Shown here piece after piece: positions 13,557 through 13,724 of a DNA stretch of 64,000 nucleotides. Within the stretch, counting starts at the first letter, position 1. The number at the start of each line of letters is the position of its first letter. The position numbers were made by a program, and so were the translations under genes. The stretch lies in NCBI RefSeq assembly GCF_024223415.1, contig NZ_CP100500.1. One strand, 5' to 3'. Under the pieces are notes generated by a model, which saw only the letters and a list, made by a program, of their open reading frames with translations, was not told the origin of the DNA and did no database searches. The DNA comes from Escherichia coli. GTDB lineage: Bacteria; Pseudomonadota; Gammaproteobacteria; Enterobacterales; Enterobacteriaceae.

Positions 13557-13560
<4 letters not shown>

Positions 13561-13724
13561 AAGAGTTTTTATTTCACTCCACGGTCAGCGTGATACAAAC
13601 CCGCAAGGCGTTGCAGGCAGCGGGCATGACTTTTCGCGTCAGCGATATTCCCCGTGATTTACGCGGCGGCTGCGGGTTATGCATTTGGCTGACCTGTCCC
13701 CCGGCGAGGAAATACAATGGGTGA
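13557..13724 (+). CDS. Candidate small Cys-containing ORF (55 aa) translationally coupled to yjiL
   Basis: ATG at 13557 overlaps yjiL TGA (ATGA); hand translation MKEFLFHSTVSVIQTRKALQAAGMTFRVSDIPRDLRGGCGLCIWLTCPPARKYNG; no homology claim possible. Confidence 0.3.

Follow-up and report, generated by a model that had tools for sequence, protein, structure and literature searches.

The yjiM and yjiL products of Escherichia coli are homologues of DCCP and DCCP-R from Carboxydothermus hydrogenoformans (CHY_0487/0488; Jeoung and Dobbek), the characterised double-cubane system. A review by Jeoung, Martins and Dobbek regards YjiM as probably a double-cubane [8Fe-9S] protein of class II, with YjiL as the reductase that serves it in an ATP-dependent manner. 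It counts YjiM among the proteins that share a seven-cysteine motif, and assigns no physiological substrate to the double-cubane system (PMC7317905). The characterised system is presented with two components and with no mention of a DUF3343 partner (PMC7317905), whereas YjiM and YjiL form an operon-like unit with a third gene, ytiA. Since the published descriptions name two components, DCCP is not known to require a DUF3343 partner; the pairing with ytiA is seen in genomes and forms no part of how the double-cubane family is defined. In E. coli, yjiML is listed among the operons directly activated by FNR under anaerobiosis (Myers et al., PMC3688515). A possible link between double-cubane proteins and selenium has also been raised, given that 955 of 970 such proteins are encoded in SelD-positive genomes (Haft, bioRxiv 10.1101/2022.07.06.499078).

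The conserved cysteine of DUF3343 proteins was noted by Lin et al. (2015, PMC5322559), who proposed the family as a putative chaperone for selenium and sulfur trafficking; in the same study, a STRING table for Slackia links DUF3343 to an "enzyme activase" and an HgdB-like gene. This carrier role is a proposal from comparative genomics, and enterobacterial YtiA is set apart by being tied to the double-cubane pair and not to YedF or Sec lyase.

Identity of the open reading frame downstream of yjiL

We analysed a 64,000-nucleotide stretch of E. coli DNA, referred to here as the window. The trio and the features within it lie on its plus strand. The first gene of the trio, yjiM (11632..12783), encodes a double-cubane-cluster-type anaerobic reductase of the HGD-D family (PF06050, E=1.8e-120), a reading supported by the RefSeq annotation of near-identical strains. 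It is followed by yjiL (12793..13560; 255 codons, TGA at 13558-13560), which encodes the ATP-dependent electron-transfer ATPase (activase/reductase) for YjiM (PF01869 BcrAD_BadFG, E=1.1e-76) and scores 364.4 bits against TIGR00241, the acyl-CoA dehydratase activase-type ATPases (cut-off 125.4). The initial annotation had likened this pair to radical dehydratase components, an outdated view: YjiM reaches 529.5 bits against NCBIfam NF040772, the double-cubane-cluster-containing anaerobic reductases (cut-off 350), in agreement with the review cited above (PMC7317905), and falls far below the cut-offs for the dehydratase subunits HadC (91.5 bits versus 700) and HadB (18.7 versus 750). A 2-hydroxyacyl-CoA radical dehydratase was also rejected because yjiM is a lone HGD-D gene and not one of an alpha/beta pair. 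The literal motif CX19CX18-19CX29CX166-170CX32-34CX32C does not match YjiM. Its cysteines, at positions 40, 59, 78, 108, 273, 302/304 and 335, are separated by spacers of X18, X18, X29, X164, X28/30 and X32/30, which follow the order of the seven-cysteine motif and are slightly shorter.

A scan with the FNR box TTGAT-N4-ATCAA recovered no convincing site upstream of yjiM. Matches across the window were near the chance expectation (53 versus 39.5±6.1), and the one closest to yjiM carries two mismatches and lies inside yjiN. Scans for promoters and terminators likewise gave chance-level results.

An ATG-initiated open reading frame of 55 codons occupies 13557..13724, as first described. Its ATG (13557-13559) overlaps the yjiL TGA (13558-13560) as ATGA, and a Shine-Dalgarno sequence, GAGGA (13545..13549), can be read directly 7 nt upstream of it, still within the 3' end of yjiL. 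The product is MKEFLFHSTVSVIQTRKALQAAGMTFRVSDIPRDLRGGCGLCIWLTCPPARKYNG, and its motif-bearing stretch is RGGCGLCIWLTC. The GGCGLC motif that first drew attention to the frame is present, and the cysteine singled out there (codon TGC, 13671..13673; Cys39 here, Cys41 in the intact protein) is the invariant residue of the family in a 48-sequence alignment and its presumed sulfur- or selenium-binding residue. A second open reading frame, in another frame, spans 13679..13816 and overlaps the 3' end of the first.

Against Pfam PF11823 (Se_S_carrier, previously called DUF3343), the 55-residue product scores 44.5 bits (E=1.1e-11); the gathering cut-off set by the curators is 25 bits, and repairing the frame raises the score to 48 bits (E=8.9e-13). 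The product shares with the family this significant HMM match, its small size and the PR-x-L-x-x-CG loop with the invariant cysteine. The match covers positions 5-47 of the 69 in the profile, so that the domain, about 70-100 aa when complete, is incomplete here. When positions 13400-13900 were compared by megablast with 5,426 complete E. coli genomes, 5,385 matched, and the annotation under the match was "ytiA: DUF3343 domain-containing protein" or "putative Se/S carrier protein"; the 501-base query spans 508 bases in the best matches. The counterpart in E. coli K-12 MG1655 is ytiA (b4715, YP_009518833.1), an 85-aa "uncharacterized protein YtiA". Intact E. coli alleles encode either 85 aa (the K-12 type) or 88 aa (a type followed by a pentapeptide-repeat island). 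Even the exact 55-aa product is deposited in GenBank as [quoted passage not shown] (SRA02936.1).

The description of this frame as unannotated thus has to be withdrawn, and its length needs qualification: 55 codons is correct for the open frame, but not for the gene, which has 83-88 codons when intact and is shortened here by a 1-bp deletion. The window copy agrees with K-12 ytiA in its location after yjiL, in the ATGA overlap, and in residues 1-51 apart from a Leu-Phe deletion and a Gly13-to-Ser change; it differs in a frameshift at a run of cytosines, in two further lesions and in a 3' end of the 88-aa type. It therefore has the position of a ytiA orthologue, directly 3' of yjiL, without the intact frame of one. 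From the Pfam match, the alignment and the identical GenBank entry, the open reading frame is very probably the 5' part of a ytiA allele that has become a pseudogene, ytiA itself being a known DUF3343 gene. The gene and its family, the annotation and the frameshift label itself can all be found in public databases, so that this finding is already known. A literature search with the gene name, with b4715 and with the names ytiA, ytiB, ytiC and ytiD found no paper on E. coli ytiA; publications under "ytiA" concern an unrelated L31 paralogue of B. subtilis.

Conservation, remote contexts and possible role of intact YtiA

A species-level scan, using one genome per species, covered 50 loci, spread over some 15 genera of Enterobacterales. 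The yjiM-yjiL-ytiA trio is contiguous in all 50, with ytiA directly 3' of yjiM-yjiL in every locus having upstream sequence; the presence of yjiN and yjiK is variable. An intact ytiA (78-89 aa) was found at 47 loci, and of the other three, one runs into the end of its contig and two are frameshifted, in assemblies where the match to yjiM is only partial. At 42 of the 50 loci the yjiL stop and the ytiA start share an xTGA overlap, and five more have TAATG or TGATG (a 1-nt overlap). Overall, Nei-Gojobori dN/dS was 0.22; codons 2-49 gave 0.15 and codons 50-80 gave 0.39. These values are approximate because dS, at about 1.4, is near saturation. Among 49 orthologues tested, a single frame, the annotated one, is open throughout, and variation is concentrated at third codon positions (summed entropy 25, 17 and 57 by position). 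The dN/dS values, the lone open frame and the third-position variation together establish that intact ytiA encodes a protein and that purifying selection acts on it, extending to the part lost in the window allele. Codon-level conservation, which the initial annotation had named among the checks to make, is thus borne out across Enterobacterales, as is the reading, one of two that it had offered, of the frame as a genuine gene translationally coupled to yjiL. Phe8, Pro34 and Cys41 are the only residues invariant across 48 family members, and Gly42 is nearly so; Trp57 and Thr63, both in the lost part, are invariant among the orthologues.

Because a search for YjiM homologues was filled by enteric orthologues at 85-98% identity, we instead looked up the genomic contexts of remote DUF3343 proteins. 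Eight cases were informative; two others lay on contigs too short to be of use. Two are trios of an HGD-D gene (383 aa), a BcrAD_BadFG gene and a DUF3343 gene in unrelated neighbourhoods. In two others, the DUF3343 gene lies directly 3' of a YedE/YeeE-type Sulf_transp gene. The remaining four are a DUF3343 gene after a TusA-DsrE fusion, TusA-DUF3343-Aminotran_5, Aminotran_5-DUF3343 and DUF3343-YqeC. The partners in all eight are either concerned with activated sulfur or selenium or are the double-cubane pair itself. Together with the contiguity of the enterobacterial trio, the two remote trios, which are differently located, give substance to the functional link with yjiM and yjiL that had been put forward as a possibility.

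Sulfur relays of the TusA/DsrE/YedF type offer a comparison. Those proteins, like YtiA, are small and single-domain; they carry persulfide sulfur on one catalytic cysteine in an exposed loop, as YtiA may. Some DUF3343 genes lie next to TusA or TusA-DsrE genes or overlap them. Yet YtiA has no Pfam TusA match and no PDB match by sequence, and its predicted topology differs. It also does not contain CPxP, the motif of TusA.

These observations suggest a mechanism for intact YtiA that we put forward tentatively. As the third gene of yjiM-yjiL-ytiA, ytiA would be co-expressed with the pair anaerobically, and its translation would be coupled to that of yjiL through the ATGA overlap and the Shine-Dalgarno sequence inside yjiL. 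A sulfur or selenium species would travel on Cys41 of the loop in the form of a persulfide or perselenide. YtiA would then work with the YjiM double-cubane reductase, to which YjiL supplies ATP-energised low-potential electrons, and the cysteine-bound species would be either handed to YjiM for reduction or taken from YjiM as product. The generalisation that YtiA-type DUF3343 proteins are dedicated sulfur/selenium relays of class II double-cubane reductases is a possibility that we hold with somewhat more reserve.

Alternatively, YtiA could serve in maturation, supplying the extra bridging sulfide or selenide while the [8Fe-9S] double-cubane cluster of YjiM is being assembled. The family adjoins genes for cysteine desulfurase or Sec lyase, TusA and DsrE, which are typical donors of cofactor sulfur, and the SelD co-occurrence led Haft to suggest that some double-cubane clusters may be selenium-bridged (bioRxiv 10.1101/2022.07.06.499078). 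We nevertheless consider this role unlikely, given that the double-cubane system is described as a two-component reductase/ATPase with no third protein (PMC7317905) and that most of the DUF3343 contexts examined lack any double-cubane gene.

An AlphaFold model of the intact 88-aa YtiA, built from a 48-sequence alignment (mean pLDDT 89.2, pTM 0.79), contains β1 (residues 2-8), α1 (11-23), β2 (28-32), a cysteine loop (33-42), β3 (43-49), α2 (53-57), β4 (63-70) and β5 (73-79). A sequence-profile search against solved structures gave a single match at chance level (E=0.16, a ferredoxin-type subunit) and no structural relative. Foldseek against the PDB detected a weak similarity to PII/GlnK proteins (E about 0.01, TM about 0.5, 10-19% identity), with the cysteine loop of the YtiA model at the position of the T-loop. 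YtiA and PII (GlnB/GlnK) share a ferredoxin-like βαββαβ core, a similar size and a functional loop between β2 and β3, but the structural likeness is weak and is not accompanied by sequence similarity. Given these scores, kinship with PII/GlnK was rejected: the fold is a generic ferredoxin-like one, and the relation is a resemblance and not membership. That PII proteins are nevertheless the best structural matches, with the cysteine in the T-loop position, would fit a regulatory or ligand-binding subunit that modulates YjiL or YjiM without any sulfur or selenium chemistry. This role is less probable still, because βαββαβ folds of this kind are very common and because the single invariant cysteine and the consistently sulfur- or selenium-related remote neighbours argue for thiol chemistry.

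Lesions and inheritance of the window allele

Alignment to intact alleles places the whole ytiA pseudogene at 13557..13816, with its 5' part in frame 0 and its 3' part shifted after a run of cytosines. Three lesions distinguish it. At a TTTTTA repeat site (13566..13574), one 6-bp unit has been lost, an in-frame change that removes Leu-Phe from the N-terminal FLFLFHS strand (β1). At 13587..13589, GGC has become AGC, replacing Gly13, which is invariant in 16 full-length orthologues, with serine (G13S). Finally, the run at 13698..13702 consists of five cytosines (C5) where intact alleles have six (C6), and this 1-bp deletion causes a frameshift that takes effect after codon 49, adding six unrelated, out-of-frame residues (ARKYNG, 50-55) before a premature stop at 13722-13724. 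The out-of-frame 3' remainder of the gene (13703..13816) would encode GEEIQWVIPGQTEAIYCQQGSDWQCVVHYDAEASTRQ up to its stop codon, matching the intact 88-aa allele exactly at its C-terminus, and corresponds to α2, β4 and β5 of the predicted fold. According to the model, the frameshift removes these three elements, including two of the five strands. RefSeq tags the same lesion of the C-run as "frameshifted" in MC4100 and in O145 strain RM8995-C1.

The variants differ in how widely they occur. On the 70-nt haplotype shared with the window, the run is C6 in 2996 complete genomes, C5 in 65 and C7 in one. Carriers of C5, whose ytiA copies RefSeq labels "frameshifted" pseudogenes, include the K-12 derivatives MC4100, BW2952, C600 and CV601 and an O145 strain. 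Since C5 genomes are found with both 3'-end types, the K-12 type and the island type, the frameshift arose at least twice. Public protein sets contain a 57-aa product ending in CPPARKYNG along with other frameshift products of the same run. A divergent allele of the B2 type (strain ABWA45) reads CCGCCT at this site and has no homopolymer. About 10-13 other E. coli genomes carry the 6-bp deletion, and they include both types of 3' end. Because alleles carrying it are annotated as intact (83 or 86 aa) elsewhere, this deletion alone may be tolerated. The 86-bp segment with G13S had no exact match among complete E. coli genomes, the best being 98.8% identical.

A frameshift, a 6-bp deletion and G13S in one gene make the ytiA product of the window most likely non-functional: loss of frame in the C-run would remove α2-β4-β5, and the other two lesions would strike β1 and an invariant glycine of the same protein. 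The initial annotation overlooked both the truncation and the two further lesions; in this genome the open reading frame is most likely a pseudogene. Its proposed refutation, disruption of the frame in close relatives, turned out the other way round, in that the relatives are intact and the window copy is the disrupted one. Because ytiA is inactivated there, the contribution of YtiA is probably missing in the lineage of the window, in which yjiM and yjiL stay intact.

One could argue that the 55-aa protein still works as a minimal carrier. It retains the conserved cysteine in its loop (IPRDLRGGCG), strands β1 to β3 and the most conserved 49 N-terminal residues, its translation signals are intact, and C5 persists in 65 complete genomes, so that residual activity is conceivable from the sequence. 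This seems very improbable. The predicted five-stranded fold would lack α2-β4-β5, and purifying selection acts on the lost part (dN/dS 0.39), which contains the invariant Trp57 and Thr63. Moreover, G13S falls at an invariant glycine, β1 is shortened, the clustering of differences in ytiA described below suggests relaxed constraint, and 47 of the 50 species-level loci are full-length, with two frameshifted and one cut by a contig end.

Phase variation or programmed -1 slippage might also make the C-run an on/off switch, in which case some full-length YtiA would still be made. C5, C6 and C7 do occur on one haplotype, C5 is found in at least two allele backgrounds (K-12 type and island type), and CCC-CCG is a potentially slippery proline run. 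Six cytosines are, however, short for a contingency locus, 98% of the haplotype genomes are C6 and just one is C7, and the B2-type allele dispenses with the homopolymer altogether. The further lesions of the window allele are, in addition, as expected for permanent loss. We therefore regard a switch as highly improbable, even more so than a functional fragment.

Comparison with near relatives bears on whether the lesions are real. The 13.5 kb upstream are essentially identical to four complete genomes, those of E. coli SCU-316, FDAARGOS_1250, G5 and NCTC10444. Against strain G5, positions 9061-20451 of the window contain 15 differences in all: two upstream SNPs, the three ytiA lesions, one further SNP and, for the rest, changes in arrays of tandem repeats within the downstream gene. 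Of the six differences in 11.4 kb that lie outside the repeats, three thus sit in the 260-bp ytiA, a clustering that by simple arithmetic has a probability of roughly 2e-4 under an even spread. The exact DNA of 13540-13830, with its three lesions, recurs in GCA_900482235.1 and in assemblies built from three independent SRA runs, among which the flanking sequence varies slightly; altogether, the triple-lesion allele is found in about 4-5 other assemblies. Its presence in independent assemblies means that it is an inherited allele of a lineage and not a sequencing error.

The opposing explanation, that the frameshift is a homopolymer error of sequencing or assembly and that the source organism has an intact ytiA, draws on the single-base nature of the lesion and its place in a C-run, where errors classically occur, and on further frameshift products of the same run in metagenome and read-set assemblies (P0075, P0091). 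It is hard to reconcile with the recurrence of identical DNA in one NCBI and three SRA-run assemblies with differing flanks, with a 6-bp deletion and a G-to-A change that are not homopolymer-type errors, with 13.5 kb of upstream DNA essentially identical to four other complete genomes, or with the occurrence of C5 in both MC4100 and its derivative BW2952, which are separate complete-genome records; we give it scarcely any weight. The idea that the frame is fortuitous, also raised in the initial annotation, has its short length and nothing else in its favour and can be dismissed in view of the Pfam match above threshold, orthologues in about 15 genera with a dN/dS of 0.22, and one frame open in all of them.

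Implications for the yjiM-yjiL-ytiA operon

What first appeared to be a new small open reading frame is corrected here to a frameshifted allele of a catalogued gene, and no new name is needed. The forward-looking part of the analysis is the tight genomic coupling of a putative sulfur/selenium carrier to a double-cubane reductase, combined with the existence of natural frameshift alleles. The frameshift in the C-run, present in about 2% of haplotype genomes and in common laboratory derivatives of K-12, constitutes a hidden genotype difference. This C5/C6 difference could confound experiments on the yjiM-yjiL-ytiA operon, or could serve them: natural frameshift strains (the lineage of the window, MC4100, BW2952 and C600) and the intact MG1655 would be ready-made test material.

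The strictly conserved trio suggests that the E. coli double-cubane reductase works with a cysteine-based carrier of sulfur or selenium. If such a relay exists, the substrate or bridging atom of YjiM-type proteins would be a protein-bound persulfide or perselenide or another sulfur or selenium species. It would also join two independent signals from comparative genomics, one connecting DUF3343 to selenium and sulfur trafficking and the other connecting double-cubane proteins to SelD.

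The two 3' ends of ytiA and the island downstream

Two distinct alleles of the ytiA 3' end (window about 13740-13816) were found, one encoding 85 amino acids and ending in HYGVSPR and the other encoding 88 and ending in HYDAEASTRQ. The two diverge from approximately codon 62 onwards. An AT-rich island, which occupies window positions 13900-16700 with a GC content of 0.31-0.41 (0.53-0.57 in the flanks), is an insertion separating ytiA from yjiK. Because the 88-aa 3' end was accompanied by this downstream island in the strains examined, these data suggest that a boundary of recombination or insertion falls within ytiA itself. 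About 637 of the 5,426 complete E. coli genomes contain a match to the island, which is frameshifted in at least one genome, that of strain SCU-316.

The island contains a pentapeptide-repeat gene of 789 amino acids (14122..16491, + strand), and the matching gene in one RefSeq record is labeled espX6, a T3SS effector. Three in-frame tandem arrays are held within this gene: eight copies of a 6-bp unit encoding KD repeats (14481-14530), an 18/27-bp array (15639-15813), and 11 copies of a 24-bp unit (16125-16385). Copy number at all three varies among otherwise nearly identical strains, and the arrays are the source of most differences between the window and strain G5.

Surrounding genes and matches to the YtiA profile

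The wider gene content was placed by alignment to FDAARGOS_1250 (L007), and this correspondence gave window spans of about 19050-24300 and about 36200-45000 for iatD and the fim operon. By this alignment, the inverse autotransporter gene iatD lies downstream of yjiJ, and the fim operon is complete, with fimB and fimE included. Positions 1-9000, upstream, contain a type I restriction-modification system. The mechanical ORF list gives yjiN as 470 amino acids from a TTG start (10104..11516, + strand). This form is probably an ORF-calling artefact; the RefSeq yjiN is a DUF445 protein of 426 amino acids (1,281 nt), corresponding to about 10236..11516.

Five long proteins (P0155, P0160, P0166, P0182 and P0206), of 407-807 amino acids, match the YtiA profile in 5-11 separate stretches each. 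DUF3343-like modules may be arrayed in tandem in these proteins.

Frameshifted ytiA in other strains and species

Among the species-representative loci, ytiA is frameshifted in Citrobacter amalonaticus AUH_CA_2023_1 (L057) and Enterobacter sp. EA-1 (L058), in both not at the C run but near the IPR motif. The yjiM match is also partial in each assembly (residues 1-194 in L057; residues 29-323, at 58% identity, in L058). These two cases could stem from assemblies that are prone to error or from a module that is decaying as a whole.

The C5 frameshift, a 1-bp deletion in a C6 run of ytiA, occurs in the K-12 laboratory derivatives MC4100, BW2952, C600, and CV601, whereas the gene is intact in MG1655 (2388-2644 of the MC4100 locus, L004, compared with 5669-5926 of the MG1655 locus, L006). 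The state of ytiA, C5 or intact, is a little-noticed genotype difference between standard K-12 strains.
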